Source of the DNA: a virus
Strand: one strand, 5' to 3'
DNA: 64,000 bases
IMG/VR virus record: IMGVR_UViG_3300050196_000225
Span: 1 to 64,000 of that record
Shown: positions 118 to 58,930 of the stretch, in pieces
Layout of the letters: every line of letters starts with the position of its first letter
How positions within the stretch are numbered: position 1 is the stretch's first letter
Position numbers and translations under genes: made by a program
The notes under the pieces: generated by a model
What the model was told of the DNA's origin: nothing
What the model saw: the letters and a program-made list of their open reading frames with translations, nothing else
The model's database searches: none

Positions 118-133
118 GTCACTTGTGACTGAA
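118..133 (-). promoter_or_regulatory. Degenerate copy of the TAAGTCA-N4-TGACTTA palindrome family
   Basis: Plus strand gtcacttgtgactgaa. The minus strand reads GTCAcaagTGACgTAGACT. It lies between the capsid stop and the terminator. Confidence 0.4.
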
Positions 134-142
134 TCACAAGGA

Positions 143-1075
143 TTAGATGTTGGTCACGCCTTGCAGACGAGCAATCGAGCGAGTGGACTTGAGGGCCAGG
201 CCGCAATACCACTTCACGCGGGTGCGAGTCGCGTCCTTGTTTTGAACGGTGCCGATGTTCTCGACCACCAGGCCAGCGTTGCCACCGCCATACAGACCGT
301 GCAGACCATCCAGCTCGTTCATGCGCAGGGCATACACGGAAGCCGTGTTCGTGTTCGCGCCTTGCGTTTCGGCGCCAGACAGGAACTCGTTCATGATGAT
401 GGGGATGCCGTTGTGGGTCAGCATCGGGCGACCGAAGTTCTCCAGCTGTTGCATCACGGCGTCGGTGCCGTAGGTGGCGCGCAGCAGAGCGCGATAGGCA
501 CGGATGGTGCCGCGGCGCATGACCAGCACGTCGGCGCCATTGGGGATGGCGTCGCACAGCTCGTCCAGCATGGACATGGTCAGGGCATTGCCGTTGGTGC
601 CGGCAGACACCAGTTGCGAGCCGCCCACGGTGGCTGCATAGGCCTGAGCTTGAGCGGCCAGCTGGGGCAGGCCGTCGAACTGCTTGGCGTTGGCGGTGGC
701 ATTGCCAGTAGCCAGAACCTTGTGGAACTCGCGCGCCACAACCTTGGCCTTTTTGGCGATTTGGATGGCCAACTGGTCGTTGGTGTCACCCATCGTTGCC
801 TGCAGGAACTTGTCCACGTCCACGTCGCCAGCGATGATGCGCAGCTTGGCAATCACTTCTTGGAAGTTCGCCGAGCTTTCGTTCACCGTGTCGTTGGGGT
901 CCAGCCAGTCGGCCGTGCCGTTGTATTTTTCACGCTCGTAGACGTAGGCCTTGCTGTTCACGCCCATGAAGGGCAGAACGGCAAACAGGTCGTCACGGTC
1001 GATAATTTCGTCGATGATGCCGGAGATGAGCGTGTTATTGCTCAACTGCTCGGCTTCGGTGCGAAGCAAAGGCAT
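143..1075 (-). CDS. major capsid protein
   Basis: 310-aa ORF, last gene in the terS-terL-portal-scaffold-capsid order. Ala/Gly/Thr/Asn-rich composition. It has its own promoter upstream and a strong terminator downstream. Confidence 0.75.
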   Translation of the reverse strand: MPLLRTEAEQLSNNTLISGIIDEIIDRDDLFAVLPFMGVNSKAYVYEREKYNGTADWLDPNDTVNESSANFQEVIAKLRIIAGDVDVDKFLQATMGDTNDQLAIQIAKKAKVVAREFHKVLATGNATANAKQFDGLPQLAAQAQAYAATVGGSQLVSAGTNGNALTMSMLDELCDAIPNGADVLVMRRGTIRAYRALLRATYGTDAVMQQLENFGRPMLTHNGIPIIMNEFLSGAETQGANTNTASVYALRMNELDGLHGLYGGGNAGLVVENIGTVQNKDATRTRVKWYCGLALKSTRSIARLQGVTNI

Positions 1076-1144
1076 TTCTTATTTCCTTAGAGTAGAGAAT
1101 CAAACTTCTCGGCCCCTAAGTCGCTCTAGTTCACCGATGACGGG

Positions 1145-1188
1145 ACTCTATCCTATTTGAGGACTTTTGTCAAGTCATCGGTGACTTA
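1145..1188 (-). promoter_or_regulatory. sigma70-type promoter with an upstream palindrome (capsid promoter)
   Basis: On the minus strand: TTGACA (1173-1168), a 17-nt spacer, then TAGAGT (1150-1145). The palindrome AAGTCAccgaTGACTT (1187-1172) abuts the -35 and is centred at about -41.5. It sits about 70 nt upstream of the capsid ATG. Confidence 0.55.
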
Positions 1189-1195
1189 CTTCGAA

Positions 1196-2038
1196 TTAGG
1201 AAGTCGATTTCAGCGCTTTCAGGCCAGCCGAAATTTTCGAAATACCATCGGCTGGCACTTCTTGCTTTTGCACGCCACTGGCGCGACTGGTTTGCGAGCC
1301 GGCGCCGGCCTTGACCTTGCTCTTGATCAAATGATCCTTGTCCGGGTCCAGATCAACGATCTTGGCCAGGGCTTGATCAAACGCCACGGGCGTGCCGTAT
1401 TGGTCAACCAGAGCGGTGCGATTGGCTGCGCCGCGGGGCTTGTCATAGCCCACGACCTTGCCGTCTTCCAAGTCGAAGTGGTCTGCGTAGATCACGCGGG
1501 CCTTGGCTGGCGTCAGGGTCAGTTCGTCAGCGATGAACTTGGACTGAGCAAACTGGCTGCCGATCGACAGCTCGTTGATATTGCCGGCCAGCTTGGCGCG
1601 TTCACTGGCTTCTTGCGCCAGCTGATCCTTGAGCGTCTTGATTTCTTTGGCATGCTCTTCAGCCATGCGCGCCTTCAGACGCTCGTAGTCGCCCTTGGCC
1701 TCAAGTGCCTTTTCTTCGGCCGTCTTTTGCTCCGCCAGCAGCTTGCGAACCGCGTCCAGGTCCAGGCCTTCCACCGACTTCTTCAGCGCGGCGATCTCCT
1801 CATCCTTCTTGCGCAGCGCTTCTTTCTTTTGCATGTTCTCCTTCAGGAGACGCGCCTCTTCGTCAGAAGTCTTGCGGGCGCCCTCGCCACTGGCCGCGGC
1901 CGCCGCAGCCTCAGCTTCGGCTTTCGCTTTGGCTGCCGCAGCTGCCGCGGCGTCATCTACACCACCGCCGCCGGTCGAGCCTTCGCCGCCGGTTTCGAGG
2001 TCGCGGTATTTGAGGAAAACTTTGCGGGTCACGAACAT
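1196..2038 (-). CDS. scaffolding protein
   Basis: 280 aa with Ala/Glu/Lys-rich coiled-coil-like sequence (AAAAAAKAKAEAEAAAAAA, EEARLLKENMQKKEALRKKDEEIAALKK). It lies between the portal and capsid genes. Confidence 0.65.
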   Translation of the reverse strand: MFVTRKVFLKYRDLETGGEGSTGGGGVDDAAAAAAAKAKAEAEAAAAAASGEGARKTSDEEARLLKENMQKKEALRKKDEEIAALKKSVEGLDLDAVRKLLAEQKTAEEKALEAKGDYERLKARMAEEHAKEIKTLKDQLAQEASERAKLAGNINELSIGSQFAQSKFIADELTLTPAKARVIYADHFDLEDGKVVGYDKPRGAANRTALVDQYGTPVAFDQALAKIVDLDPDKDHLIKSKVKAGAGSQTSRASGVQKQEVPADGISKISAGLKALKSTS

Positions 2039-3778: not shown

Positions 3779-3791
3779 GTTATTCCTAGTG

Positions 3792-3809
3792 TAAGTCACC
3801 TGTGACTTA
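3792..3809. promoter_or_regulatory. Perfect TAAGTCA-N4-TGACTTA palindrome
   Basis: taagtcacctgtgactta in the short terL-portal spacer. It ends 13 nt before the portal ATG. The minus strand continues TGACTTACACTAGGAATAACATG. Confidence 0.6.
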
Positions 3810-3819
3810 TTGGCAAGGC

Positions 3820-5778: not shown

Positions 5779-5822
5779 AGCATACTTCAGACGCGTCCAA
5801 ATGTCAAGTCATCTGTGACTTA
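5779..5822 (-). promoter_or_regulatory. sigma70-type promoter with an upstream palindrome (in front of terS)
   Basis: On the minus strand: TTGACA (5807-5802), a 17-nt spacer, then TATGCT (5784-5779). The palindrome AAGTCAcagaTGACTT (5821-5806) is centred at about -41.5, the same geometry as the capsid promoter. Confidence 0.55.
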
Positions 5823-6280: not shown

Positions 6281-6571
6281 TCATTCTTGAGGCTCAACCA
6301 GGGAGACGGGACGGGGAGAGTTAGCGGCCGCGAAGTGCTGCCCCAAGACAGTCACGCCAAGCAGACCACGCTGGCGGCCCCGACGTTTTTCAACGCCACG
6401 CTTTTCCACCAACTCGTGCTTGACCAGCGCTCGGATCGAAAAGTGAATGGAGTCCTTGGACGGCTTGTAGCTCAGGCGCTCCAGCAGCTCGTCCAGGTCA
6501 ATCAAGGAGCCGTCCGGGTTGCCGGCAGCCACCTTGCACACCACTTCGATTTGTTTGTCGGTCAGTCGCAT
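6281..6571 (-). CDS. winged-helix DNA-binding protein (MarR/PadR-like fold)
   Basis: 96 aa. SIHFSIRALVKHELVEKRGVEKRRGRQRGLLGVT looks like a recognition helix plus wing. It starts 2 nt after the stop of the upstream GNAT-like gene. Confidence 0.5.
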   Translation of the reverse strand: MRLTDKQIEVVCKVAAGNPDGSLIDLDELLERLSYKPSKDSIHFSIRALVKHELVEKRGVEKRRGRQRGLLGVTVLGQHFAAANSPRPVSLVEPQE

Positions 6572-7721: not shown

Positions 7722-8367
7722 CTTTATATCCTTCTGGGGCGCGCACGATCTCGATCTTCTCGCGGTAGCGCTTGTTGATGTAGAGGCTCGGCGCCAGGTC
7801 CGCAACCATGTCCGTGTGGGTAGTGGCCACGATCAGCGTGGCGCCAACCTTTCGGGCGACTTTTTGCAAGTTGAACGCGATCACCTTGGCCGTCGTTCGG
7901 TCCAGCACGGCCAGAAACTCGTCTGCCGTCCAGACCTTCGCGCCAGACTCGATAATCTTGGCCAGGCGAAAGCGGTAGCGCTGCCCGTCCGACAGCTCTT
8001 GCGGCTTTCGGATGAACAGGTAGGCGTCGTTCAGACCGGCGATGGACAGGTAGTTCAGCGCGTCGGCTGTGGTCTTGCCGATCTGGTCGATCAGCGGGCG
8101 CGTTTCGTCCAGCTCGATGGCGTCCAGGTCGGTCACGCCCAGGTGCGACATCTGACTGGCCAGCTCGCGCAGGACCGTGGATTTGCCTGAGCCGGACTGG
8201 CCCGTGACGTAAACCACATCGCCTTGCAGGATCTCAAGAGGCTGGTTGTCAAAGACCACGAACTCCTTGTCATCCAGGCCCAGCCCGAAGGCTTCGGCGA
8301 TCTCCAGCACGCGCTCGGTGCGCTCCACTTCCGTGTGAAAGCGCTTGTCGATCAGGTATGTGCTCAT
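7714..8367 (-). CDS. soluble ABC-type ATPase
   Basis: Walker A GQSGSGKST, signature-like LSDGQRYR, Walker B VWTADEF and H-loop ATTHTD. No permease partner nearby. Confidence 0.8.
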   Translation of the reverse strand: MSTYLIDKRFHTEVERTERVLEIAEAFGLGLDDKEFVVFDNQPLEILQGDVVYVTGQSGSGKSTVLRELASQMSHLGVTDLDAIELDETRPLIDQIGKTTADALNYLSIAGLNDAYLFIRKPQELSDGQRYRFRLAKIIESGAKVWTADEFLAVLDRTTAKVIAFNLQKVARKVGATLIVATTHTDMVADLAPSLYINKRYREKIEIVRAPEGYKDA

Positions 8368-8558: not shown

Positions 8559-8932
8559 TCCACCGACATGCTGTTGTTGATCACGGTCCACCAGGCGCAG
8601 GCCTTGGGGTTGTCCTGCCAGAACATGCACAGGCCATTGGCGCCTTTGAGCACGAACTCTTCCTCGACGGCATGGGGGTCCAAAGGCTCGTCGTATTTCA
8701 GAAAGTTGCCGGTGGCCATGAAGAAGTGCAGCGCGTGCATCACTTCGTGGATGAAGGTGTTGGCCAGGTTGCGAGGCGTCATGCCGGGGCGCAGGCGGAT
8801 TTTTTGGTTGGAGGGTTGCATGTGACCGAAGGCGCGATCGGTTTCGGCGTCTTCGAAGTCCTGGACCTCGACGCGGAACTCGTAGCAGCCGATGCGCAGT
8901 GTGGTGGGCATGCCCTTGTATGGATTGCTCAT
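8555..8932 (-). CDS. HExxH zinc-metallopeptidase-like protein
   Basis: 125 aa with TFIHEVMHALHF (HExxH). It overlaps the ParB-like gene's stop. Confidence 0.55.
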   Translation of the reverse strand: MSNPYKGMPTTLRIGCYEFRVEVQDFEDAETDRAFGHMQPSNQKIRLRPGMTPRNLANTFIHEVMHALHFFMATGNFLKYDEPLDPHAVEEEFVLKGANGLCMFWQDNPKACAWWTVINNSMSVE

Positions 8933-9609
8933 TTGTGACTTACCTCTCGGGCCGAAGCCGTGGTTGTGATGCGTCGAGCGAACTCGACAAATGCTTCGGC
9001 ACCGGTTTGGCCCGTCAGCTCTTCGGCGTGCGCCATCAGACGCGCGACGTGCCGCTCATCCTTGCCCTGGATGTCCTTGAAGCCCAGAGCGGCCTGGATC
9101 TTCACGGGCCGCTCGTCGGTCTGCTTGATCTTTTCCTGCGTCTCCAGCGCCTGCTGGTCAACGGCGGCATCCAAGTCGTCCACGAAGGCGTCCAACTTCA
9201 TCTCGCTCAGGTCGGCGCTCATGAAGTCCAGCTCCTTCTTGTCGAAGATGCCAGAGAGGTCGAACTCCAAGCTGGCCAGCTCCTTTTGCAGCAGCTCGCT
9301 GTCGATGTCGGAGATGGCCACGCGGTTGTCGGCCAGGCGCGCGGCACGCACCTGCTCAGGCGTCAGATCGTCGCGCACCACCACCGGCACGGACGTGAAG
9401 CCCAGCTTGATGGCAGCCAGGCGCCGGCCGTGCCCCTTGATGACCACGCCGGCAGCATCGACCACGATCGGCTGGTCCCAGCCAAACTCTGTGATGGACT
9501 GACAGATCTTTTCGATCTGCTTGTCGTCGTGGACTTTTGAGTTCAGCTCGTAGGGCGTGACGCGGTCAAGCGGCCACAGAACGACGGTTGGTTTCTTGGG
9601 GTTGCTCAC
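8929..9609 (-). CDS. ParB/sulfiredoxin-domain protein 1
   Basis: ParB N-terminal-domain pattern: LDRVTPYELNSKVH, then PIVVDAAGVVIKGHGRRLAAIKLG. I prefer the GTG 9609 start (GTGA overlap). The track start is GTG 9633. Confidence 0.7.
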   Translation of the reverse strand: MSNPKKPTVVLWPLDRVTPYELNSKVHDDKQIEKICQSITEFGWDQPIVVDAAGVVIKGHGRRLAAIKLGFTSVPVVVRDDLTPEQVRAARLADNRVAISDIDSELLQKELASLEFDLSGIFDKKELDFMSADLSEMKLDAFVDDLDAAVDQQALETQEKIKQTDERPVKIQAALGFKDIQGKDERHVARLMAHAEELTGQTGAEAFVEFARRITTTASAREVSHK

Positions 9610-9939: not shown

Positions 9940-10587
9940 TTATTCTTGGCTCGCCTTGAGCAAGTAAACCAGGGCGTCACCCGCGTTGGTCAGGCTGTCG
10001 GACTCAGTGAATTTCTGCACCTTCATCGTTTTCTCGATCAAGGCAGTCACGTCGTCAATATCCTCGACCGGCACTTTGAATCGCATGATTTGGTGGGTCT
10101 GCGACGGCTTTTCCTTGGGAGAGGTTGTGGCGGTATCGTCCACATCGGGCAAATCCAAATCATCGAGGGCTATATTCACCGAAGAGAAGATTGACGCAAT
10201 ATCACCTTCGGAGTAAGGCATGAAGCTGGCCAATTCATCGGCACTGCCTAAACTGTCCAGCAGTTCGGCCAATTGCAGCGTGTTGTCGGCGCCATACCGG
10301 CCGTTGTCCACCAGGCCAATTTCTTTGGCCTTGGCGTCGTCGATCTTGCCCAGGTTGATCACCGGGATCTTGGCCAGCTTCAAGCGCACGGCCGCTGCCG
10401 CGCGGTGCTCGCCACCAATGATCTGCAGCGAGCCGTCAGCCAGCTCACGCGCGACGACTGGCTTGAACATACCCAGGCGACGGATCGACTGGTCCAGCTT
10501 GGCCTCGTTGTCTGGAGACACCACGTTGGTGTTCCAGGGGTTTGGCTTCAGCGACGCTGGGTCGGCCAGGATGGGGGTTGGTGACAT
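9940..10587 (-). CDS. ParB/sulfiredoxin-domain protein 2
   Basis: LKPNPWNTNVV, then PVVARELADGSLQIIGGEHRAAAAVRLKL (GxxR motif). First gene of the minus-strand operon. Confidence 0.7.
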   Translation of the reverse strand: MSPTPILADPASLKPNPWNTNVVSPDNEAKLDQSIRRLGMFKPVVARELADGSLQIIGGEHRAAAAVRLKLAKIPVINLGKIDDAKAKEIGLVDNGRYGADNTLQLAELLDSLGSADELASFMPYSEGDIASIFSSVNIALDDLDLPDVDDTATTSPKEKPSQTHQIMRFKVPVEDIDDVTALIEKTMKVQKFTESDSLTNAGDALVYLLKASQE

Positions 10588-10604
10588 CTTATATGGCTTG
10601 GCAT

Positions 10605-10622
10605 TAAGTCAGTTCTGACTTA
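10605..10622. promoter_or_regulatory. Perfect TAAGTCA-N4-TGACTTA palindrome in the divergent control region
   Basis: taagtcagttctgactta, between the ParB-2 start (10587) and the helicase start (10690). It is followed on the plus strand by CACTGT, giving TGACTTACACT as at the portal copy. Confidence 0.6.
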
Positions 10623-10689
10623 CACTGTGCCACAAGAAAACAACCAAGGCAAGAGCCATGCAAAAAAATTCTACATCACAGGAGCGCAC

Positions 10690-12396: not shown

Positions 12397-12569
12397 GCGC
12401 CGGCGACGTCTGGGTGACCAGCCACGCCGAGTGCTTGACCTGCGGGCACATTTGGATCGCCGTTCACCCGCTGAACGCCGACGACCTGGAGTGCCCGCAG
12501 TGCGGGTCCACGGACACGGTTCGCGAGAACACAGTGGAGATTGACGACGATGAGGACAATGACATTTAG
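12393..12569 (+). CDS. zinc-ribbon small protein (58 aa)
   Basis: ATGA overlap with the helicase stop. CLTCGH...CPQCGS and an acidic C-terminus. Confidence 0.55.
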   Translation: MSAGDVWVTSHAECLTCGHIWIAVHPLNADDLECPQCGSTDTVRENTVEIDDDEDNDI

Positions 12570-12576
12570 TGTGTTG

Positions 12577-12587
12577 TTGACTATACT
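12577..12587 (+). promoter_or_regulatory. Plus-strand copy of the TGACTATACT half-element
   Basis: ttgactatact, 34 nt upstream of ATG 12621. Its orientation matches the plus-strand genes. Confidence 0.4.
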
Positions 12588-12944: not shown

Positions 12945-13144
12945 CCTTCGCCGACACCCATTCGGAATACCTGTGGCTGCGGGCGCAGCTCGGGTATGAG
13001 CCAGGCGGCATCGTCAAGGAGGTATGGGACGGGTGTGACGCTGAAAGCCAGCAAAACATGCTTGAGCAGTTCAGGGCACCGCTGCGCGCAATCCAGGCCA
13101 GGGAAGCCGTCTATGCCAAGATTCGTCAAGGAGACGCCTGGTGA
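12941..13144 (+). CDS. hypothetical protein (ends ...QGDAW)
   Basis: 67 aa with GTG starts and GTGA overlaps on both sides. Confidence 0.5.
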   Translation: MTFADTHSEYLWLRAQLGYEPGGIVKEVWDGCDAESQQNMLEQFRAPLRAIQAREAVYAKIRQGDAW

Positions 13145-13539
13145 AGGTCTGTGTCACGGGCGGGCGCGAGTATGGGGACAGGGCACACGTCTACCGCATT
13201 CTCGACGCCGTGCATCGGAAGAGGCCCATCACGCTACTGCTGGAAGGTGGCGCCGCAGGCGCCGACCGACTGGCGCGGGATTGGGCGATTTCCAGAGGTG
13301 TGGATTTCCAGACCTTCGAGGCGAATTGGGCGCTCTATCTTGGTCGCGCTGGCAACATCAGGAACTCGCGCATGCTGCGGGAGGGTCGCCCTGCTTTGGT
13401 AGTCGCGTTCCCTGGTGGCTCTGGCACTCGGGACATGACGGTCAAGACGGTTCGAGCTGGCATTCCAATGCTTCCAGCTTCCAAGTTCCAACTTCCATCC
13501 TCCAGCCTGGCTGACGCTGGGCGTCTTTCCAATGTATAA
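13141..13539 (+). CDS. SLOG-fold protein (DUF2493/YspA-like)
   Basis: VCVTGGREYGD...LLLEGGAAGADRLARDWA...FEANW...AGNIRNSRML...VVAFPGGSGTRDM matches the DUF2493 pattern. Confidence 0.7.
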   Translation: MKVCVTGGREYGDRAHVYRILDAVHRKRPITLLLEGGAAGADRLARDWAISRGVDFQTFEANWALYLGRAGNIRNSRMLREGRPALVVAFPGGSGTRDMTVKTVRAGIPMLPASKFQLPSSSLADAGRLSNV

Positions 13540-13707
13540 GGACCACGTTTCCAAGCTCGGGGCCTGGCTGTCTAAGGACGGTATTGGAGAGGGTCGGAAC
13601 GAGGAAGGGAGGGCCTCCAGCCCTGTCGCGTTTTTCTAAGACTTCGCTATAACGCAAAGCATTCAACCCGCAGCATGTGATGCAATGCGGGTATGTAATG
13701 CTGTCTG

Positions 13708-14013
13708 TTATTCGAATCGCGTCAAGCGCTCAGTGATCAAGCGCACAAAGTGCGCTTGTGCTGACACTGCGTCATTAAGATAGATCGTTTGTTCGACTAT
13801 CACGCTTGCGTGCGATTCTTGACTTGCGCAGCTAAGATTGTAGCAACCCTCAGCGTCATATACGGTGACCGTGTTGTAATGGTTACTATCAGCGCAAGCG
13901 TTGTATGACACCATTTCAAAATGATGTTCTGCGATAACTGCAAAGCGACTGTCTTGCAATTCGCTGCAAGTGTCAAGCAAAGCGAGAATTTCGGGTGTTG
14001 ATTCTATAATCAT
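13708..14013 (-). CDS. hypothetical protein (AT-rich island)
   Basis: 101-aa ORF in a visibly AT-richer segment, with the promoter/leader element directly upstream. Confidence 0.55.
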   Translation of the reverse strand: MIIESTPEILALLDTCSELQDSRFAVIAEHHFEMVSYNACADSNHYNTVTVYDAEGCYNLSCASQESHASVIVEQTIYLNDAVSAQAHFVRLITERLTRFE

Positions 14014-14030
14014 TTTGCTTACCTTATTTA

Positions 14031-14051
14031 ATTCAATGATTGAATTATAGC
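14031..14051 (-). promoter_or_regulatory. -10 plus conserved-leader element
   Basis: The minus strand reads gcTATAATTCAATCATTGAAT. It belongs to the same family as the 12 copies at 15.9-29.8 kb. Confidence 0.45.
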
Positions 14052-14087
14052 ATTAATTCACGGGTGACTTAGCACCCGTGAATTAAT
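14052..14087. repeat. 15-bp perfect inverted repeat embedding the palindrome motif
   Basis: attaattcacgggtg / cacccgtgaattaat with loop acttag. It contains TCAcgggTGACTTA and lies between two genes. Confidence 0.7.
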
Positions 14088-14091
14088 ATTT

Positions 14092-14739
14092 TTATTCTGC
14101 TACGCTTTCTTGTTCTTCTTGTTCGTTTTCTTCTTGCGCTGCAAGTGCTGCAGCTGCTACAGCATCAGCAAATAAGGGTGCAAGAATCTTCTTCCCCTTT
14201 TCGTTCAAGGGAATAGAATCCCCCTTATGTGCTTTTTGAATGTCTGCGAGTTGCAAAACGCGCAACATTTCACGCGTGCTACTACGCTGCGTGCTAGCTG
14301 TAGATTCTGCTTTGCGCATGCGATACTTGATGACTTGCGCAGTGTCTTGTTCGGTGTATTCAATACCATTTGACAAGCAAACAAGGGCAGACTTAGCTAA
14401 CATGGTCCCGTCGTTATGAAAAGCGTTAGCGATGATAGTAACGCTATATTCATCAACCTTACTGAGCATGCGAACACCGATCGCATAAAGCATGTTGACA
14501 ATCTTAACGTTCGCTTTCACTGCGATGAAGTTTTCACCCTTGTTCAATGGGTTTTGCATTTTGCAGTATGCATCGATACAATCGAGCGAAAATCTCATAA
14601 GGGCTTTTTTGATCGCGACTTCACCTGACGCAAGGTGCTTCAATGTGATTTCGTTATCGCGTGAAGGTTGCGCAGCTTGACGCGCAGTCACTGCAGCGAA
14701 AATATTCTTGTATGCGGTCTGCGATTGTTCAACGTTCAT
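14092..14739 (-). CDS. hypothetical protein with an acidic tail (AT-rich island)
   Basis: 215 aa, ending AQEENEQEEQESVAE. The segment STASTQRSSTREMLRVLQLADI resembles GTCNAQAGQMMAMLPMLKIAV in the protein at 25308-26309. Confidence 0.6.
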   Translation of the reverse strand: MNVEQSQTAYKNIFAAVTARQAAQPSRDNEITLKHLASGEVAIKKALMRFSLDCIDAYCKMQNPLNKGENFIAVKANVKIVNMLYAIGVRMLSKVDEYSVTIIANAFHNDGTMLAKSALVCLSNGIEYTEQDTAQVIKYRMRKAESTASTQRSSTREMLRVLQLADIQKAHKGDSIPLNEKGKKILAPLFADAVAAAALAAQEENEQEEQESVAE

Positions 14740-14917
14740 GATGTGCTTTCAAGGTTAGCGGGTTAGGTTTGATGCGTTTTCAGCGCATGAGTTAATGTAA
14801 CCTGTTTTTGTGTGTTGTGCGCATTGTGTGCAAAAAAAAGATGATTATTTTTAGTTGACGTTGCAGAACAACACATTGTAAAGATGACACACGATGAAAA
14901 AGATTTGTGTTAGTCGC

Positions 14918-14931
14918 GCGCATGCATGCGC
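14918..14931. repeat. 14-bp perfect palindrome GCGCATGCATGCGC
   Basis: Read directly from the sequence, in the 490-bp non-coding stretch 14740-15228. Confidence 0.7.
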
Positions 14932-14952
14932 ATCGCGCGTTTTAGTCACCAT

Positions 14953-15031
14953 ACGCAATGCGTTAAACGATGAGCTTTAAGCGCAATGCTTTAAGCGCAA
15001 TGCGTTGAGCACAACGCGTTGAGCGCAGAAC
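14953..15031. repeat. Iteron-like array of 14-bp tandem units
   Basis: tttaagcgcaatgc x2 (14976-15003), then gttgagcacaacgc and gttgagcgcagaac (15004-15031). Related units precede it (acgcaatgc gttaaacgatgagc). Confidence 0.6.
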
Positions 15032-15228
15032 GTGATGCGTTCAGGCGCAGCGAGACAGAAATCCCGCCCAGATAGGGGATGGCGATGGCGCCAGGATGGC
15101 CAAGGAACGCCTCAGCGCCCTTCAGGAGCGTCAAGGATCGATTTGCCTGTCAGGGCCAAGGACCGGTAAAACTTCCAAAAACAGGTCCGCCTGAGAGCTG
15201 TCAACTCTCCAGGTCAGACCCTTTCGGA

Positions 15229-15617: not shown

Positions 15618-15668
15618 GGTTGGCTTTCAGCTGAGTTGAGCGAGGTTTGGGTGAGGTGGATGACATTC

Positions 15669-15680
15669 GTCACCCGTGAC
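15669..15680. promoter_or_regulatory. Palindrome-family copy GTCAcccgTGAC
   Basis: The minus strand reads tatcaGTCAcgggTGACgaatgtc, about 50 nt upstream of ATG 15617. Confidence 0.4.
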
Positions 15681-15707
15681 TGATACCCGTAGGCATCAGA
15701 AAGGAGG

Positions 15708-17212: not shown

Positions 17213-17611
17213 CCACACCGACTGCAGGTCACGATTTCAGGCAAAAGCCAAGTCAAGTTTGGATTGTCAAGCGGTGGACAAAACGTCCAACAAGTCCCAA
17301 GGACAGCGCAAAAGCCTCGCGCGCACGCAGGATCTTTTGAAAAGAAGTTCGCCTGAAAGACCAGGTTTAACTTGAGGTGTATTGGCCCCTCCGATGAGGA
17401 AACCTAGTGGAAGAACAAGCCCCCCTTACCCCCCGTAGCACTTTCCTACAGGAGACAAGGAGGACAAGTTCCGCCAGGTTTCACACATCGGAGGCTATCC
17501 GCGTATGACACACCAACAGGCAAGAACAAGCCCCTAGAAGAAGAAGCGACTCCTGAGAGAACCTAGCCATTTGGCACAGTGATCAGGGAAGCAATTTGCG
17601 ATCACTGTAGC

Positions 17612-17625
17612 TCAGGAGTGACTGA
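17612..17625. promoter_or_regulatory. Palindrome-family copy TCAggagTGACTGA
   Basis: It lies immediately 3' of ORF 17630-17998, at the head of a 560-bp ORF-free stretch. The adjacent hairpin is cagtgatc-N15-gatcactg. Confidence 0.4.
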
Positions 17626-17629
17626 TCTG

Positions 17630-17998
17630 TCAAGAGGCAAACCTGTGCTTGTTGCGCTCGAACCAGTCGCAGGACTCCCATGCCCAGTCTTCACTGCTGG
17701 AAGTCCCACCGCCCTGGTAGTCATCCGAGTTCAGCTTCACCCAGCGGAACTGCCCTGCATACTCTTTGCCCCAGACTGCGCCCATGTCTTCGATGTAGTA
17801 GCCCATGCTCATCAGCTCGGCAATGCGCTCAGAACCGAGCACAGAAAATCCATGAGCCCTGATCAGGGACTTCGCTTCACGCACTGTTTTGGCTTCAAGG
17901 GCTGCGAGCGTGCGGCCGGACTCGATACTGTGGACCGTGACCTCGACCCAGTTGGAGGCGTGAAGAATCACGGTGGTGATGTGAGGAGCGGTTTGCAT
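17630..17998 (-). CDS. hypothetical protein
   Basis: 122-aa ORF with the leader element upstream. Confidence 0.6.
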   Translation of the reverse strand: MQTAPHITTVILHASNWVEVTVHSIESGRTLAALEAKTVREAKSLIRAHGFSVLGSERIAELMSMGYYIEDMGAVWGKEYAGQFRWVKLNSDDYQGGGTSSSEDWAWESCDWFERNKHRFAS

Positions 17999-18035: not shown

Positions 18036-18430
18036 GACCTCTATACTCAGGCTATGGTCACCACCCGCCAGGCACGCCACACGCCTATCCTTGCCGCCTA
18101 TCCTGCTCGCGCCTTGGCAGCCAATGCCTGTAACGCTCGCAGGCCTGCAGGATCGCAACTTCTAGGCCTGGCCAGGATAGCCTGTCAGCCTGTAGGCCAG
18201 GTAACGCCTCGGCAAGCCTCGGCAGCGCCAGGCGCAAAAATTGGCCGTCACTGGATCAGGACAGCCTGGGCGGTGGGTGGCCAGGTGGAAGGGGTAAGAG
18301 AGGGTGGAAAGTTGGCGACGATTGAAGGGTGGAATACCACCCACCCACTTTTTGCTTAGACGTAGGCAACTCGTCACCCACCCACTTTCACCTTACGCCT
18401 ACACCTAGTCTTCCTTCTCTTCTACAAACC

Positions 18431-21334: not shown

Positions 21335-21372
21335 TGTTTGTTGCGATGAATGTATTATTCACCCGTGACTGA
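21335..21372 (-). promoter_or_regulatory. Palindrome copy fused to a -10 plus leader element
   Basis: The minus strand reads ctCAGTCAcgggTGAATAATACATTCATCGCAACAAACaaccgagagcgcataacATG. It overlaps the last codons of ORF 21355-21579. Confidence 0.5.
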
Positions 21373-22420: not shown

Positions 22421-22494
22421 CTTGTTTCGATGGGTTAATTGTGACGACCGCATGCAGGCGACGGTCGTCACCGCTGACTTATCCAGTCAGCGCG
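22421..22494 (-). promoter_or_regulatory. Compound control region: two hairpins, a palindrome copy and a -10 plus leader
   Basis: The minus strand reads CTGACTggatAAGTCAGcgGTGACGACCG-N11-CGGTCGTCACAATTaacCCATCGAAACAAGC. Confidence 0.45.
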
Positions 22495-24572: not shown

Positions 24573-24634
24573 CTTGTTTCGATAGGTCAAATTGTGACCA
24601 TCAATGTGTGGATTGTATAGTCAGTTCTGACTTA
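24573..24634 (-). promoter_or_regulatory. Palindrome+TATAC element followed by a -10 plus leader element
   Basis: The minus strand reads TAAGTCAgaacTGACTATACaatccacacattgatggtcACAATTtgacctATCGAAACAAGC. Confidence 0.5.
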
Positions 24635-24822
24635 TGCCAAGCAATGCCCCTACGATCGCAAAGAGGGCAGGCCTTGCGTTTGTTTTGCAGTGCATGCTCT
24701 ACCCTTGACCGCATCTCGCCTACGCAAGGCCTGCGGGTTTTAAGGGCAGGCGATTCGGGCGCACTGAGCCCTTCAAAGTGTGATCGGGCGAGCCGTGCCC
24801 GCTCCAAGGACACGGACCTGTC

Positions 24823-30453: not shown

Positions 30454-30505
30454 GAAAAACCTTTCATCTGTTGCAGACCAAAATTGTCGCAACGAAAGTC
30501 AGGAG

Positions 30506-30527
30506 TATAGCTCACCTGTGACTGATA
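30506..30527 (-). promoter_or_regulatory. Palindrome+TATACT element
   Basis: The minus strand reads TATCAGTCAcaggTGAGCTATACTcctgactttcgTTGCGACAAtttt, 53 nt upstream of ATG 30453. Confidence 0.5.
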
Positions 30528-35597: not shown

Positions 35598-35639
35598 ACG
35601 GTTTATAGCTCAATCACTAATGACTGAAGTATAAACCGT
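35598..35639. promoter_or_regulatory. 10-bp inverted repeat enclosing a palindrome-family variant
   Basis: acggtttata / tataaaccgt flank gctcaatcactaatgactgaag. It lies between NAMPT and the L12-like gene. Confidence 0.5.
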
Positions 35640-39317: not shown

Positions 39318-39346
39318 GTGGTTAACCTTTCGTTTGGTTGTCTAAG

Positions 39347-39365
39347 TATAGTCAGTGATGACTTA
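39347..39365 (-). promoter_or_regulatory. Palindrome+TATACT element
   Basis: The minus strand reads TTAAGTCAtcacTGACTATACTTAGACAAcc. 26 nt are identical to the copy at 48423-48448. Confidence 0.55.
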
Positions 39366-40146: not shown

Positions 40147-40767
40147 TCAGTGCATGACAGCGCCTTCGCGCTCGCCCTCTGCCCGCTTGATCACTCGGGC
40201 ACCGGCAGCGTCAAGGGCTGCAACGCGGTCGTCCAAGTTGATCAGGTAACGCGGGACGTAGTAGTGGGGAACCTTCAGACGCTCGTCCACGCTCAGCCCC
40301 AGGATGATCGAGTTCAGGTGCTCGATGTAAGCCTGGTTCATGGCGGCCTTGCCTTCTTCGGCAACCAGGGCAATGCCAGGCTGGACGACCAGCAGCATGC
40401 CAAAGTGCTTGTTCAGGCTTTCAAAGCATTCGGCCACATATTTCGCGAAGCGCGCCTGGTCTTCTTCCTTGACCGCAGTGCCAATGGCTTCGGCGAGCGT
40501 GTAGCCCATGAAGTCCAAAGGCGTGCGGTCAGTGATGGCGTCAACGCAGGCATGCTTCTCGTAGATGGCATTCAAGCGCTTCAAGATCTCTTCCTGGATA
40601 TTCAGTCTGGTCGAGAAGTCATAGGTGACTGCCGGGTCAAAACCCATGTCCTTGAAGATGGCGCTCACCGACGTTTCCACGAAGGTGAAGTCACGTCTGC
40701 TTGCGAACGTCTTGGCCAGCGTTGTCTTGCCTACCCGATGGGCACCTGCGAGTCCAATCACTTGCAT
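40147..40767 (-). CDS. P-loop kinase/ATPase of the AAA_28 (NadR-like) type
   Basis: Walker A GLAGAHRVGKTT. DRTPLDFMGY and the later LLVVQPG segment fit the AAA_28 pattern. The substrate is unknown; it could be a nucleoside or nucleotide kinase. Confidence 0.5.
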   Translation of the reverse strand: MQVIGLAGAHRVGKTTLAKTFASRRDFTFVETSVSAIFKDMGFDPAVTYDFSTRLNIQEEILKRLNAIYEKHACVDAITDRTPLDFMGYTLAEAIGTAVKEEDQARFAKYVAECFESLNKHFGMLLVVQPGIALVAEEGKAAMNQAYIEHLNSIILGLSVDERLKVPHYYVPRYLINLDDRVAALDAAGARVIKRAEGEREGAVMH

Positions 40768-41692: not shown

Positions 41693-41720
41693 GACGTTCC
41701 TTTCGGTGGTTGATAAATAC

Positions 41721-41742
41721 CTCAGTGATGACTGAAGTATAG
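41721..41742 (-). promoter_or_regulatory. Palindrome-family element
   Basis: The minus strand reads CTATACTTCAGTCAtcacTGAGGTATTTATCaacc, 29 nt upstream of ATG 41692. Confidence 0.5.
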
Positions 41743-45421: not shown

Positions 45422-45439
45422 AGGTAAACACCTTTTCAG

Positions 45440-45463
45440 AAAAAGGCGGGACTGTTGCCCGCC
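45440..45463 (-). terminator. Rho-independent terminator 19 nt upstream of the nrdB start
   Basis: The minus strand reads GGCGGG-caacagt-CCCGCC-TTTTT. It lies between the palindrome+TATACT element and nrdB. Confidence 0.65.
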
Positions 45464-45478
45464 CTTGAATGCCCTTAG

Positions 45479-45498
45479 TATAGCTCAGTGATGACTTA
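45479..45498 (-). promoter_or_regulatory. Palindrome+TATACT element
   Basis: The minus strand reads gaTAAGTCAtcacTGAGCTATACTaaggg. Confidence 0.55.
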
Positions 45499-47753: not shown

Positions 47754-47792
47754 TCAATGTCCTTGTTGATCTTTGAGAAAGGGAAAGGAGTC

Positions 47793-47812
47793 TAGCTCAG
47801 TGGTGACTGAAG
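47793..47812 (-). promoter_or_regulatory. Palindrome-family element
   Basis: The minus strand reads CTTCAGTCAccacTGAGCTAGACTcc, 40 nt upstream of the nrdA ATG. Confidence 0.5.
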
Positions 47813-47828
47813 TCAATATAAGAGCCAA

Positions 47829-48113: not shown

Positions 48114-48397
48114 GCGTCCTTATCGACGGTTTTTGGAATGTCGACGTTCGTCTTTTTAGTTGCCATCGCCGCGTAGGCATTGGCATTGGCGTCTACGATA
48201 TGGCTTTCATCGAAAACGATACTGTCAAATGCCTTGCCTCGAATCTTCCCGTCAGACGCCGGTATAAATGGCAGATCTGTGAGAATTGAGCTTTTTTCAG
48301 TGAGCATGTCGATCATTTCCTGCGTCAAGGTCACTTTGCCAATGCGACGGCCACCAGTTGTCACTGTGCCCCTGAGTCGCTTTTTGTCATCTGTCAT
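48107..48397 (-). CDS. hypothetical protein with a PKT..D.AW tail
   Basis: 96 aa from ATG 48397, ending DIPKTVDKDAW. Confidence 0.55.
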   Translation of the reverse strand: MTDDKKRLRGTVTTGGRRIGKVTLTQEMIDMLTEKSSILTDLPFIPASDGKIRGKAFDSIVFDESHIVDANANAYAAMATKKTNVDIPKTVDKDAW

Positions 48398-48429
48398 CAC
48401 TGAAATTCCAGTAGAAGCGTTTGTCTAAG

Positions 48430-48448
48430 TATAGTCAGTGATGACTTA
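48430..48448 (-). promoter_or_regulatory. Palindrome+TATACT element
   Basis: The minus strand reads gaTAAGTCAtcacTGACTATACTTAGACAAac. Confidence 0.55.
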
Positions 48449-52948: not shown

Positions 52949-52961
52949 GCCTTCTCCTTTA

Positions 52962-52976
52962 TTCAGTCGTGACTTA
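52962..52976 (-). promoter_or_regulatory. Palindrome-family copy next to the RBS
   Basis: The minus strand reads TAAGTCAcgacTGAATAAAGGAGAAGGCATG. Confidence 0.4.
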
Positions 52977-53655: not shown

Positions 53656-53672
53656 TAAGTCAGGAGTGACTA
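53656..53672 (-). promoter_or_regulatory. Palindrome-family element
   Basis: Plus strand taagtcaggagtgacta. The minus strand reads TAGTCActccTGACTTAgcacc. 30 nt upstream of ATG 53626. Confidence 0.5.
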
Positions 53673-54062
53673 CCGCAACTTCATCGCCTTCGCAATACTG
53701 CCGCTGCTGATCGATGTGTTCACGAGGAACTTGTCTCGCCCGAGTCTACGTTGCGGCGTAGTGCCTTCGGGGTGTGGCTCGCTTGGCGGGCTCCAAAAGT
53801 CCTGCAGCCTCGTAATATAGTAGTGGACGTTTTTGCCAACACGGTGGGCAACCCCTATTGCAGTAGCGCCTCTTCTTTCAGCTTCCCGCAGTGTTGCGAT
53901 GTCCAAACACCAGGCGTTCTTGCGAAAGAACAGCGATCTGGACTTTTCGCCCGAGCGCCACGCCAGGTAGAGGCACCTGCCGTCATCAAAGTGGTAGAAC
54001 ATGCCATATTTCTTGCCGTTGACGGAGTGAGGAACGCGCGTGATGCTCACCACGATCCCCAC
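53670..54062 (-). CDS. hypothetical protein
   Basis: 130-aa ORF. Confidence 0.55.
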   Translation of the reverse strand: MGIVVSITRVPHSVNGKKYGMFYHFDDGRCLYLAWRSGEKSRSLFFRKNAWCLDIATLREAERRGATAIGVAHRVGKNVHYYITRLQDFWSPPSEPHPEGTTPQRRLGRDKFLVNTSISSGSIAKAMKLR

Positions 54063-55789: not shown

Positions 55790-55995
55790 CTGCCTTTCTT
55801 GATTTCAGTGAGTTGGACTTCAACTACCTCGTATTCGTCAGGCTTGTGAAGCGTCTTGCGACGCCCGTCTGCCTTGCCAAAAGAGGTGAAGAGGTGCGGT
55901 GCGCCGCGCTGCGTTCCCGCTGGCGAGTTGGGGCGCTGCGATTCGATGTCTCGGACGAAAAAGTAAGATGCGTCAGTGGTGACTGATCCACTCAT
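55786..55995 (-). CDS. hypothetical small protein (69 aa)
   Basis: From ATG 55995 (ATGA overlap with the FEN stop). ATGA overlap with the recA-like start. Confidence 0.45.
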   Translation of the reverse strand: MSGSVTTDASYFFVRDIESQRPNSPAGTQRGAPHLFTSFGKADGRRKTLHKPDEYEVVEVQLTEIKKGS

Positions 55996-57800: not shown

Positions 57801-57880
57801 TTGTTTCTTTCGTTTGGTTGAGGTTTGAGCCTTTGGACTTGGCCGGGACTATCCCGGTTACATCGGTTCAGCTTCTTCAG

Positions 57881-57919
57881 TATAGTCATCCGTGACTTAG
57901 TAAAATGGTCACGGATGAG
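57881..57919 (-). promoter_or_regulatory. Palindrome+TATACT element within an 11-bp-stem hairpin
   Basis: tatagtcatccgtgactta, plus tcatccgtgac-N11-gtcacggatga. The minus strand reads CTAAGTCAcggaTGACTATACTgaag. Confidence 0.55.
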
Positions 57920-57924
57920 GCTAT

Positions 57925-58860
57925 TTATGCGGCGCGGCGGGCTCCAGACAGCGCAGCGCGGCCAGCGGCAGCGGCAGCGGCGGCGGTAGAGTCGCGCTCG
58001 TTCTGGGCGGCCATGACGCGGGCCTGGCCCTTATATTCGTCGCGGCGATCGGCGCCAAGCTGGATGATCATGTCCCGGCGATCCTTCAGGGATTCGACCA
58101 TGCTCTTGTTGATGGCGGCAATGGACTCGGACTCGATGACCAAGTTCTTGGCGCGCAGCCAGCGGGAGTCGACCTTGACGGCGTTTTCCACCATCTTCTC
58201 GGTGACCTTCTCGCCACTGGCGACCAGGCCCTTGCGGTGCTCGTCATAGAGCTTGGCTTCGATGACTTCAAACTTGGACTTCATGCGCGAGGCTTGCGCT
58301 TCGGCTTGAGCGGCCTGTGCGCCATAGAAGGCGCGCAAGCCGTTTTGCTCGATCATGCAAGAGTCCAGCGTGGCTTCGCTGACTTTGGTGTCGCGCATGA
58401 ACTGGTTCACGTCCACATAGTGCTGGAGCGTGCCGATGCTCGACGACGCCACGGGCGGGGGCTCATAGACGGCCGTGCTGACGCTGACGCGCCTGGGCTT
58501 TGGCTCGGGCTCAGGTTCAGGCTGCGACTCTTCCCACGGCGCAGCGGCTACAGGCTCGGGCGCAGTTTCTTCCGGCTCGGCCGCTGCTTCGGCTTCAAGC
58601 TCGGCCAGATCTGCCTCAAGCTGATCTGTCGTGTCGGCTTCAGCGACAGCAACAGGCTGCGGCACTGACAGTTCATCAGGAACCGCCGCGACAGGCTCAG
58701 GTTCAGGTTCAGGCTCAGGTTCCATTGCCGCAATTTGCGCAGCCGAAGGCTGTGACGCAGGCTCATCTTGAGCAACTTGAGCCGTAAGGCCAGCTGTTTG
58801 AGCCTCAAGCTCAGCCATGAGCAGTTCAATTTCTTCATTGGACGTGTCGATGTCAGTCAT
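57925..58860 (-). CDS. acidic (EP)n-repeat protein with a UvsY-like C-terminal half (tentative)
   Basis: 311 aa. The N-terminal half is acidic with PEPEPEPEP blocks. The C-terminal roughly 150 aa show a spacing pattern similar to T4 UvsY, and the gene lies between the SSB and DnaE genes. Confidence 0.4.
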   Translation of the reverse strand: MTDIDTSNEEIELLMAELEAQTAGLTAQVAQDEPASQPSAAQIAAMEPEPEPEPEPVAAVPDELSVPQPVAVAEADTTDQLEADLAELEAEAAAEPEETAPEPVAAAPWEESQPEPEPEPKPRRVSVSTAVYEPPPVASSSIGTLQHYVDVNQFMRDTKVSEATLDSCMIEQNGLRAFYGAQAAQAEAQASRMKSKFEVIEAKLYDEHRKGLVASGEKVTEKMVENAVKVDSRWLRAKNLVIESESIAAINKSMVESLKDRRDMIIQLGADRRDEYKGQARVMAAQNERDSTAAAAAAAGRAALSGARRAA

Positions 58861-58903
58861 GTGGATTCTCCAATTTGTCGCAACATCTGCGAAACGTGGT
58901 AAG

Positions 58904-58930
58904 TATAGATCAGCGGTGACTTATCACCGC
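58904..58930 (-). promoter_or_regulatory. Palindrome+TATACT element
   Basis: The minus strand reads GCGGTGATAAGTCAccgcTGATCTATACTtaccacgtttcgcagatgTTGCGACAAattgg. It overlaps the hairpin GCGGTGA-N4-TCACCGC. Confidence 0.55.

Follow-up and report, generated by a model that had tools for sequence, protein, structure and literature searches.

A recurrent 7-4-7 palindrome joined to -10 hexamers in a phage-plasmid lineage: a putative binding site for a phage-encoded transcription regulator

Introduction

Phage T4 middle promoters combine a sigma-70 -10 hexamer with a phage upstream element that replaces the -35 hexamer and, set at a fixed spacing, is recognised by a phage protein. MerR operators consist of a 7-4-7 dyad between the -35 and -10 hexamers, where a bound dimer can sit alongside RNA polymerase. 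In phage P1, the record of which (NC_005856) annotates late promoters as a 9-bp "-22 region", a 4-nt gap, and a -10 hexamer, the extracted sequences read AAGT(G/T)ACTT-N4-TAnAAT, and the late-promoter box is the binding site of Lpa (PMC10695390). This Lpa-bound architecture (AAGTGACTT-N4-TAnAAT) is the closest known counterpart of the element described here, a 7-4-7 palindrome (TAAGTCA-N4-TGACTTA, hereafter the dyad) that recurs between the genes of a 64,000-nucleotide stretch of viral DNA, positions 1-64,000 of IMGVR_UViG_3300050196_000225 (hereafter the window).

The dyad and an adjacent TAnAcT -10 hexamer probably define the main promoter class of the ~112 kb phage-plasmid lineage to which the window belongs, with about two dozen predicted promoters. 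With moderate confidence, the dyad itself is assigned as the putative binding site of a phage-encoded dimeric transcription regulator that acts mainly positively; we infer dimer binding, the phage origin of the protein, and the sign of regulation. Phage-plasmids of ~110 kb, of the SSU5 type or related to it, are frequent among Proteobacteria, and resistance and metabolic genes form part of their cargo. How they organise transcription is essentially unstudied, and no published promoter descriptions for them were found in the literature.

Distribution and orientation of the dyad

The dyad is far more frequent in the window than chance allows, which bears out the first-pass annotation that drew attention to it. 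TAAGTCA-N4-TGACTTA with at most two mismatches gives 14 matches versus 0.03 expected, and AGTCA-N4-TGACT with at most one mismatch gives 20 versus 1.7. The looser core AGTCA-N4-TGA defines 28 distinct dyads, about ten times the chance number. Twenty-two of the 28 fall within the 23% of the window that the gene calls leave non-coding, and one further dyad (21363) lies inside a doubtful open reading frame (ORF). Where a copy matches on one strand only, that strand is the gene strand in 16 of 18 cases, both exceptions being intragenic. Because of this placement and the 16:2 strand bias, the coupling to gene direction is real. The proposals that the copies are mostly intergenic (22-23 of 28) and that the asymmetric flank follows the downstream gene both hold, and a check for equal frequency inside coding sequence did not overturn them.

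Each copy listed in that annotation is real to within 1-4 nt, and the copy at 14058 does lie in a 15-bp inverted repeat (14052-14087). The list was nevertheless incomplete, lacking the copies at 55969-55986, ~1127-1144, 48390-48407, and 57904-57921 and the intragenic copy at 40617-40630. Two copies had been assigned to the plus strand, of which that at 10605 is intact, while 12577-12587 comprises only a right half-site plus -10 hexamer, the left arm being missing.

Some dyads form inverted pairs (1127-1188, 48390-48448, 57879-57921, and 14052-14087, with centre spacings of 44, 41, 23, and ~14 bp) that make up longer inverted repeats with arms of 11-15 bp. The 4-nt centres of the paired copies are mutually reverse-complementary, which points to local inverted duplication. 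Elsewhere, 4-6 dispersed copies have TCAC or CCAC at the centre and agree over as many as 28 bases, which suggests that promoter cassettes have been copied around the genome.

Promoter geometry

Positions of the dyad centre assume a transcription start 7 nt after the hexamer. In 12 intergenic copies, only 1-3 nt separate the dyad from a TAnnnT hexamer; the dyad centre then lies at ~-18, and the dyad covers -28 to -11. These copies fall into two non-overlapping sets (Table 1): (i) class A, six copies with a perfect TATACT hexamer and no -35 (3/6 matches or worse), and (ii) class B, six copies with a weaker hexamer (TACACT, TAGACT, TACAGT, or TACAAT) and a -35-like hexamer upstream of the dyad at a spacing of 16-18 bp. 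All class B -35 hexamers match at least four of the six consensus positions, and five of the six copies match at least five (chance rate 0.017, p ~1e-6). Since such a trade-off between -35 and -10 quality is typical of sigma-70-type promoters, the dyad lies in the promoter spacer. As read from their sequences, none of the six class A copies has a correctly placed extended -10 TG; lacking both a -35 and a proper extended -10, class A promoters should need a positive factor.

In the second register, designated class C, the dyad is centred at -41.5 and its right arm is fused to TTGnnn, followed by 17 bp and the hexamer. Two copies lie in the window, at the capsid (1145-1188) and packaging (5779-5822) loci, and one outside it, at position 8666 of the related locus L034, before a CobS-like gene. 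These are only three of ~26 copies, and all three show the exact overlap TGAC-TTGnnn-17-hexamer. The hexamer pairs proposed for 1172 and 5806 (TTGACA-17-TAGAGT and TTGACA-17-TATGCT) are present as described, with the dyad centre at -41.5. The same register is kept at orthologous sites in the relatives L006 and L056, with the L006 packaging site having class C geometry (TGACTTGACT-17-TATCCT). The claim of two discrete geometries is therefore upheld, and these geometries together with the conservation of the -41.5 register fit a separate DNA-binding protein. The further claim that copies elsewhere lack a -35 is right for half of the 12 copies that abut a -10 hexamer and wrong for the six that have a -35-like hexamer; moreover, ~9 intergenic copies (class D) have no adjacent -10 hexamer at all. 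As a whole, the dyad behaves as the transcription-control element it was proposed to be, tied to promoters and coupled to gene direction. At 83-139 and 45435-45498, the order of elements is stop codon, dyad with -10, strong intrinsic terminator, and next gene.

Probable recognition as duplex DNA

The two arms of the dyad vary independently. In the 23 window copies compared, pairing within the 7-bp stem holds for 75.8% of cells versus 76.2% with partners shuffled, and 371 of 500 shuffles do as well or better. Only one cell is compensatory, and mismatches disrupt the four outer pairs in 26-65% of copies. The left half-site remains TAAGTCA or TCAGTCA while the right half-site drifts to TGAGC, TGATC, or TGAAT. 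The best copies can fold into a 5-7 bp stem with a tetraloop at -4 to -5.6 kcal/mol (z ~-2.5 to -3.3), and the TGAGC, TGAAT, and TGATC variants, which occupy equivalent positions, fold no better than shuffled sequences. No Rfam family matches in the window. Independent conservation of the arms as sequence is what a dimeric protein on duplex DNA produces. As far as its pattern of variation tells, the dyad is a protein site on duplex DNA and not a hairpin, and the RNA-level role that had earlier been left open is largely dismissed.

Conservation in relatives

An exact search of viral contigs for TAAGTCA-N4-TGACTATACT returned 29 stretches, mostly from relatives that share 65-75% nucleotide identity; contigs of 111-116 kb contributed several. 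Over 44 non-redundant family sites, the conserved block is TAAGTCA-N4-TGACTATACTT, and its flanks, including the -35 position, are not conserved (<0.6 bit per position). In the family loci and the window together, 25 of 36 CTATACT sites have AGTCA-N4-TGA in register and 61 of 107 TAAGTCA sites have TGACT four bases on, counts in which only the window copies are free of ascertainment, the family loci having been retrieved by the full motif.

The element extends well beyond one phage. Contigs with sigma homologues of only 36-38% identity still carry the dyad, one lineage has a drifted variant (CTAGTAA-N4-TTACTAG), and Magnetospirillum molischianum DSM 120 harbours a family member on a 112,764-bp contig. 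A motif scan of bacterial genomes gave 15 matches with ~70 expected by chance, which are mostly noise; the family members among them are L041, L047, and L050. The label "phage-specific" in the first-pass annotation is accordingly too narrow, as the element is common to a family at 65-75% nucleotide identity and to bearers of sigma homologues down to ~36%.

The dyad is absent from the more distant Pseudomonas phage nickie and Stenotrophomonas phage BUCTxx99 despite the same TATACT-type hexamers upstream of their genes; these hexamers were read from annotated intergenic gaps, whole-sequence k-mer counts being swamped by codon bias. SSU5 also lacks the dyad and has other intergenic dyads. Because the dyad is absent from distant relatives with the same TATACT-type -10, its binder appears to be lineage-specific and hence of phage rather than host origin.

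Lineage and gene content

Nearly all genes called in the window lie on the minus strand, apart from a short plus-strand block at 10.6-13.5 kb. The gene repertoire matches a large siphovirus (major head, scaffold, portal, and large terminase), with further genes for a UvsW-like helicase, NAMPT, an NMNAT/Nudix protein, both subunits of ribonucleotide reductase (RNR), and SbcC. Replication is represented by a gp32-like single-stranded DNA-binding protein (SSB) and a DnaE-type polymerase with a C-terminal uracil-DNA-glycosylase (UDG)-like domain, and a sigma-70 region-2 protein is also encoded. No close DNA relative of the window was present in the isolate-phage collection, and the plasmid collection matched it only with distant phage-plasmids. 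DnaE (~40-43% identity) groups the window phage with the ~110 kb Rhizobium RHEph10, Stenotrophomonas BUCTxx99, Pseudomonas nickie, and SSU5-type elements. A protein identical to the window sigma is present on a 112 kb metagenomic contig.

Past window coordinate 63732, L034 1-10000 encodes VapBC, an HTH_36 Rep-like protein, ParA, and a 189-aa small tyrosine recombinase. L034 also encodes a 148-aa XRE HTH_3 protein divergent from the early operon, which there comprises a 62-aa ORF, CobT-like, CobS-like, sigma, and DnaE. These ParA, tyrosine recombinase, VapBC, HTH_36 Rep-like, and XRE HTH_3 genes beyond the window end are the reason for regarding the window element as a phage-plasmid, and the location of the XRE HTH_3 gene beside the early operon provides a candidate repressor gene for a temperate plasmid-prophage. 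In the switch region of L034, a TTGTCA-18-TACAAT promoter is overlapped by a separate, stronger palindrome, TGTGAC-N7-GTCACA, over the early-promoter -35, and copies of the dyad beside the XRE gene are degenerate only.

The UDG-superfamily domain of the DnaE-type polymerase (58938-62390) occupies residues ~1000-1099 (Pfam UDG, E = 2.5e-08), and the fusion is retained in L034 and L056. The neighbouring gene (62429-63085) encodes a 218-aa protein (phrog_3616, function unassigned), overlaps the stop codon of the sigma gene, and keeps its place beside dnaE even in nickie and BUCTxx99, whose annotation calls it "recombinase". A role for this protein as a partner of the sigma or of the replication module is possible.

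Candidate binding proteins

The phage sigma (63082-63732) had been listed as one candidate reader of the dyad. It is a genuine sigma factor: Pfam Sigma70_r2 matches at 27.9 bits, above the gathering threshold, sigma factors in the PDB match it, its AlphaFold2 model is two-domain with a predicted local distance difference test score of 80, and the top Foldseek matches are all sigma factors. All dyad-bearing loci that include the region have an orthologue, with identities as low as ~36%, so that gene and motif do co-occur; nickie has neither, while BUCTxx99 has a remote sigma homologue and no dyad. A pattern-based search of viral contigs for the sigma gene gave no match, but local tblastn/phmmer and the protein database did give homologues. 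It is possible that this sigma is a partner of the dyad promoters. Judged by the geometry of the site, however, it cannot explain the dyad alone, because the site is symmetric, with an upstream arm only 9-10 bp from the -10 that a monomeric sigma does not account for and that regions 2 and 4 cannot span; because the dyad also stands beside host-type TTGACA hexamers; because nickie uses the same hexamers without such a sigma; and because BUCTxx99 has the remote homologue without the dyad. Moreover, the family sites do not contain two asymmetric elements 16-18 bp apart, as expected for sigma regions 4 and 2, and the -35 position is unconserved in the family.

The two winged helix-turn-helix (wHTH) proteins named earlier as binders are weak candidates. 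That at 6281-6571 lies upstream of the packaging promoter, the position of lpa in P1, and is a candidate by position only; its homologues occur in SSU5 and BUCTxx99, both of which lack the dyad at the packaging promoter. For the MarR-like protein at 30559-30867, the isolate-phage collection yielded no homologue, and none of the family loci covers its region. The conserved 62-aa first gene of the early operon yielded no DNA-binding domain. With P1 Lpa as the query, the lowest E-value from tblastn against the window and the family loci was 1.1, ~38 kb of the phage genome lying outside this search; P1-like phages were the only members of the phage collection with Lpa homologues, and none was detectable in SSU5-type phages. 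Among the ~50 proteins scanned with Pfam or PHROGs, which are part of the full complement of the genome, there was no CRP/FNR-family protein, one of host origin being conceivable, and no MerR-family protein turned up among the proteins scanned. No homologue of MotA or AsiA turned up in the searches run, none of which was aimed at these proteins.

Proposed mechanism and alternative explanations

In the favoured reading, the dyad would be built into sigma-70-type promoters at fixed registers, replacing the missing -35 in half of the copies at ~-18 and overlapping a TTGACA-type -35 at -41.5 before the packaging, capsid, and CobS-like genes. The role of the regulator would be to attract RNA polymerase, carrying either the host sigma or the phage sigma, or to stabilise it at promoters that are too weak alone, much as Lpa does at the -22 box of P1. 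Most lytic genes would remain silent in the plasmid prophage as long as the regulator is absent. Activation is supported by the strict register in both geometries, the conservation of the composite as a unit, and the P1 precedent. An extended version of this mechanism, which is unlikely, would have a phage dimer at ~-18, within the would-be promoter spacer and overlapping the upstream edge of the -10, replace -35 recognition in conjunction with the phage minimal sigma and also act from -41.5. If true, one small protein would reprogramme nearly all transcription of a widespread phage-plasmid family across proteobacterial classes.

Several observations weigh against a mainly positive role. The class D copies have no adjacent -10 hexamer, and one such dyad, between a terminator and the ribosome-binding site of the CobT-like gene, keeps its position in four genomes without a promoter. 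The class C -35 hexamers are consensus or near-consensus, which class II activators normally do not need. Class B dyads fill the spacer of six promoters that seem competent with host sigma-70, where a bound protein would more naturally repress, and several dyad pairs, including that 44 bp apart around the capsid promoter, flank a promoter in an arrangement typical of repressors. The promoter-like copies at 111-139 and 45477-45498 are succeeded at once by strong terminators, which a transcript from them would reach within ~10-35 nt. The negative Lpa search also counts against it, as does the occurrence of homologues of the wHTH at 6281-6571 in phages that have no dyad at the packaging promoter, which weakens that protein as the binder. 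The main rival draws on much of this evidence: the dyad would be the operator of a global prophage repressor, for instance the XRE-type HTH_3 protein encoded beside ParA past the window, that silences the lytic genes. Besides the spacer-filling and flanking copies, it is in keeping with the plasmid-prophage gene set and its divergent XRE HTH_3 gene, the many C1 operators that the P1 record annotates as overlapping promoters, the weak dyads within the divergent switch region, and the copies without a -10, including the one conserved between terminator and Shine-Dalgarno (SD) sequence, which could act as roadblocks. An 18-bp 7-4-7 palindrome is also a typical operator size for a helix-turn-helix dimer. 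However, half of the copies abutting a -10 lack a -35 or proper extended -10 and would offer little intrinsic activity to repress, repressors do not need a strict register to the hexamers, the switch region has its own, stronger palindrome beside merely degenerate dyads, and repression alone leaves the family-wide conservation of the composite unexplained. A global repressor is considered somewhat unlikely, and a dual-function regulator is quite possible.

It is improbable that the whole block is read directly by polymerase with the phage sigma and without a separate DNA-binding protein, the right arm plus TATACT serving as an extended -10 and the left arm being contacted by the sigma C-terminal domain. 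The authenticity of the two-domain sigma, its orthologues in all dyad-bearing loci that cover the region, the joint absence of sigma and dyad from nickie, and the logic of a temporal cascade started by a sigma gene in the early operon all speak for such a reading; yet a monomer leaves the two-fold symmetry and the independently conserved left half-site unexplained, and sigma regions 2-4 on polymerase set a distance of 16-18 bp in place of the 9-10 bp that separate the left arm from the -10. The second register beside host-type TTGACA hexamers, the housekeeping TAnnnT form of the -10, the use of TATACT by nickie without such a sigma, and the dyad-less sigma homologue of BUCTxx99 are equally difficult to reconcile with it. 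A palindrome that works as a hairpin, whether in RNA processing, stability, or as a translational operator, or as extruded single-stranded DNA like the promoters of the N4 virion RNA polymerase, is very improbable. The stem and loop sizes of phage N4 early promoters do resemble the dyad, the best copies can form the stem with tetraloop, and some copies finish 9-15 nt before a start codon, beside an SD sequence. Nonetheless, covariation is absent, the variant copies in equivalent positions do not fold stably, the arms are conserved as sequence across the family, the element would be outside the transcript if the start follows the hexamer, and neither a giant virion RNA polymerase nor an Rfam family is evident. 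Finally, the linear plasmid-prophage N15 has centromere repeats dispersed over its genome, and the window has two ParB-like genes (8929-9609 and 9940-10587), with ParA beyond it. That the dyads are dispersed parS-like sites bound by a ParB-like protein is nevertheless hardly credible and was ruled out, given more than 25 copies, their fixed register with -10 hexamers, a coupling to gene direction unlike that of centromeres, and the presence of both ParB-like genes in the dyad-less SSU5 and BUCTxx99.

The outcome is a regulon map for one lineage with ~26 sites in four geometry classes, an early-type promoter/leader class, a phage sigma, and a plasmid-prophage switch region. If the binder is an activator, it would represent a master switch between plasmid maintenance and virion production and a handle to induce or lock these elements, and the logic of P1 Lpa would extend beyond P1-like phages. 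The 21-nt signature also offers a means of spotting members of the family in metagenomes.

Promoters and other features of the window

The individual copies and the two proteins discussed above are collected in Table 1.

Table 1. Dyad copies, associated promoter hexamers, and selected genes in the window
Feature	Position	Strand	Description
Class A promoter	30504..30525	-	TCAGTCA-CAGG-TGAGC-TATACT; -35 absent (2/6)
Class A promoter	39345..39365	-	TAAGTCA-TCAC-TGAC-TATACT; -35 absent (3/6); ~30 nt 5' of the ATG of a MazG-like gene
Class A	45477..45498	-	TAAGTCA-TCAC-TGAGC-TATACT; no -35; intrinsic terminator directly after, then RNR small-subunit gene
Class A	48428..48448	-	TAAGTCA-TCAC-TGAC-TATACT; no -35; weaker inverted partner 41 bp downstream (~48390-48407)
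Class A	57879..57899	-	TAAGTCA-CGGA-TGAC-TATACT; no -35; upstream of gp32-like SSB gene; inverted partner 23 bp upstream (~57904-57921)
Class A	58902..58923	-	TAAGTCA-CCGC-TGATC-TATACT; no -35; immediately past DnaE stop codon
Class B	111..139	-	TTGTGA-17-TAGACT; spacer dyad TCAGTCA-CAAG-TGACG; after major capsid gene, directly before terminator 83-110
Class B	3788..3816	-	TTGCCA-17-TACACT; perfect spacer dyad; end 9 nt before portal ATG
Class B	10598..10626	+	TTGGCA-17-TACACT; perfect spacer dyad; ahead of the UvsW-like helicase block, which it would drive; site conserved in L006
Class B	17604..17633	-	TTGACA-18-TACAGT; spacer dyad TCAGTCA-CTCC-TGAGC
Class B	24612..24640	-	TTGGCA-17-TACAAT; spacer dyad; then early-type CACAAT/leader element
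Class B	47789..47816	-	TTGACT-16-TAGACT; spacer dyad; upstream of RNR large subunit
Class C, major-capsid promoter	1145..1188	-	TAAGTCA-CCGA-TGACT at -41.5, overlapping TTGACA-17-TAGAGT
Weaker inverted partner dyad	1127..1144	-	cGTCA-TCGG-TGAac; just 3' of capsid promoter -10, 44 bp from first dyad
Class C	5779..5822	-	TAAGTCA-CAGA-TGACT at -41.5, overlapping TTGACA-17-TATGCT; upstream of TerS-like/terminase genes
Class D	14052..14087	-	Two overlapping dyads forming a 36-bp palindrome, 8 nt upstream of TATAAT
Class D	15666..15683	-	TCAGTCA-CGGG-TGACGAA; adjacent TAnnnT absent
Class D	21355..21372	-	TCAGTCA-CGGG-TGAATAA; abuts early-type AATAATAcattcatcgcaacaaac element
Class D	22464..22481	-	TAAGTCA-GCGG-TGACGAC; centre ~-41 from early-type CACAAT hexamer
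Class D	35610..35627	-	TCAGTCA-TTAG-TGATTGA, then GCTATAAA
Class D	41718..41735	-	TCAGTCA-TCAC-TGAGGTA, then TTTATC
Class D	52959..52976	-	TAAGTCA-CGAC-TGAATAA, directly followed by AGGAG and ATG; too little space for a -10 plus leader
Class D	53656..53673	-	GTAGTCA-CTCC-TGACTTA; TACAAT 9 nt further downstream
Class D	55969..55986	-	TCAGTCA-CCAC-TGACGCA; absent from the first-pass list
Half-site promoter	12559..12587	+	ATGACA-17-TATACT; right half-site alone (TTGACTATACT), left arm missing
Orphan copy	40617..40630	.	Perfect AGTCA-TAGG-TGACT within coding region; no -10
Phage sigma-70-family protein	63082..63732	-	216 aa; region-2 domain and C-terminal helical domain
Small wHTH protein (phrog_900)	6281..6571	-	Encoded directly upstream of class C packaging promoter

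A second recurrent upstream element occurs on the minus strand between ~14000 and 30000. It consists of a -10-like hexamer (CACAAT, TATAAT, or CATAAT) followed by the conserved leader tCA(t/a)TCATCG(C/A)AACAA(A/G)C, 20-35 nt 5' of the ATG. At least 12 copies are present, including those before the genes starting at 15899, 16453, 17069, 17998, 21318, 22406, 23142, 24558, 26303, and 29740, and the element is also found in L056. The copies probably represent either early promoters of host type or a promoter-leader cassette that has been duplicated.

The 36-bp palindrome at 14.05 kb belongs to a low-GC stretch (12945-15228, ~54%) with few confident genes at the switch from plus- to minus-strand genes. 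The stretch also contains a YspA/SLOG-family ORF (13141-13539) and the ORFs 14092-14739 and 13708-14013, which flank the palindrome and have no domain matches.

Two of the dyad-less relatives have recurrent intergenic elements of their own. In nickie (MG018927; L031, 33996-77379), many intergenic regions contain a GC-rich inverted repeat with a TAnAAT-like hexamer in its loop, and CCCC often precedes the element. The stems vary in sequence from site to site with pairing kept (e.g., GTGCGCTC-TTACAAT-GAGCGCAC), and examples in L031 include 7944-8010, 13552-13622, 18071-18160, and 37475-37596. Such a structure-type element would present the -10 as single-stranded DNA. SSU5 (NC_018843; L053/L052) has 8-11 copies of AAACAA-N1-3-TTGTTT just upstream of ribosome-binding sites, as well as TAAGT(n)ACTTA followed by TATCAT-like hexamers, which is very near the P1 Lpa box. 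One SSU5 copy, TAAGTGACTTA, is located at the wHTH/TerS junction within a larger palindrome.

Comparison with known systems

The dyad shares individual traits with several families of regulatory site. With MerR operators, it has in common a 7-4-7 dyad in the promoter spacer. MerR spacers, however, measure 19-20 bp and are untwisted by the activator, whereas those of the dyad promoters measure 16-18 bp and half of the copies have no -35; the spacer length rules out a MerR-like mechanism. Class II CRP/FNR sites (FNR box TTGAT-N4-ATCAA at -41.5) are matched by a dyad with a 4-bp centre at -41.5 that overlaps the -35 at three promoters and is conserved in relatives. In contrast to such sites, the class C promoters carry consensus or near-consensus -35 hexamers, and most dyads are at ~-18, where CRP/FNR proteins do not activate.

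P1 C1 operators and the stoperators of mycobacteriophage L5 gp71 resemble the dyad in having at least 20 intergenic copies of a short site across a prophage, many of them overlapping promoters and others not, with an orientation that follows transcription; a plasmid-prophage lifestyle is a further common point. C1 operators and stoperators are asymmetric, while the present site is a dyad that gains its asymmetry only from the adjoining -10, is held in strict register with that hexamer, and in half of its copies lacks a -35. T4 middle promoters, which depend on MotA and AsiA-remodelled sigma-70, likewise place a phage-specific upstream element before a -10 in lieu of the -35, but the MotA box is an asymmetric 9-bp site at ~-30 read by a monomer, whereas the dyad is centred at ~-18.

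P1 late promoters differ from the dyad promoters in that (i) the P1 box is 9 bp long, centred at -22, and separated from the -10 by a 4-nt gap, whereas the dyad spans 18 bp at ~-18 and abuts or overlaps the -10; (ii) the dyad also occurs within complete -35/-10 spacers and at -41.5; (iii) P1 late promoters serve morphogenesis, lysis, and packaging operons and depend on host SspA, whereas dyads are not confined to late genes and stand ahead of genes for SSB, RNR, helicase, and other functions in replication or nucleotide metabolism as well; and (iv) no Lpa homologue was found in the window or family loci. The likeness is nonetheless extensive. Both systems have a TAnnnT -10 without a -35, which holds for class A and the family consensus and not for class B, and both place a short inverted repeat, in P1 the site of a phage activator, just upstream of the -10 at a fixed distance. 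A dozen or more copies are spread over a phage-plasmid genome, ahead of packaging, head, tail, and lysis genes. Even the outer letters AAGT...ACTT are shared, with AAGT starting 13 nt before the hexamer in P1 and 14-15 nt before it in the dyad. By analogy, the dyad promoter is one that works like a P1 late promoter and stands outside the P1 Lpa regulon.

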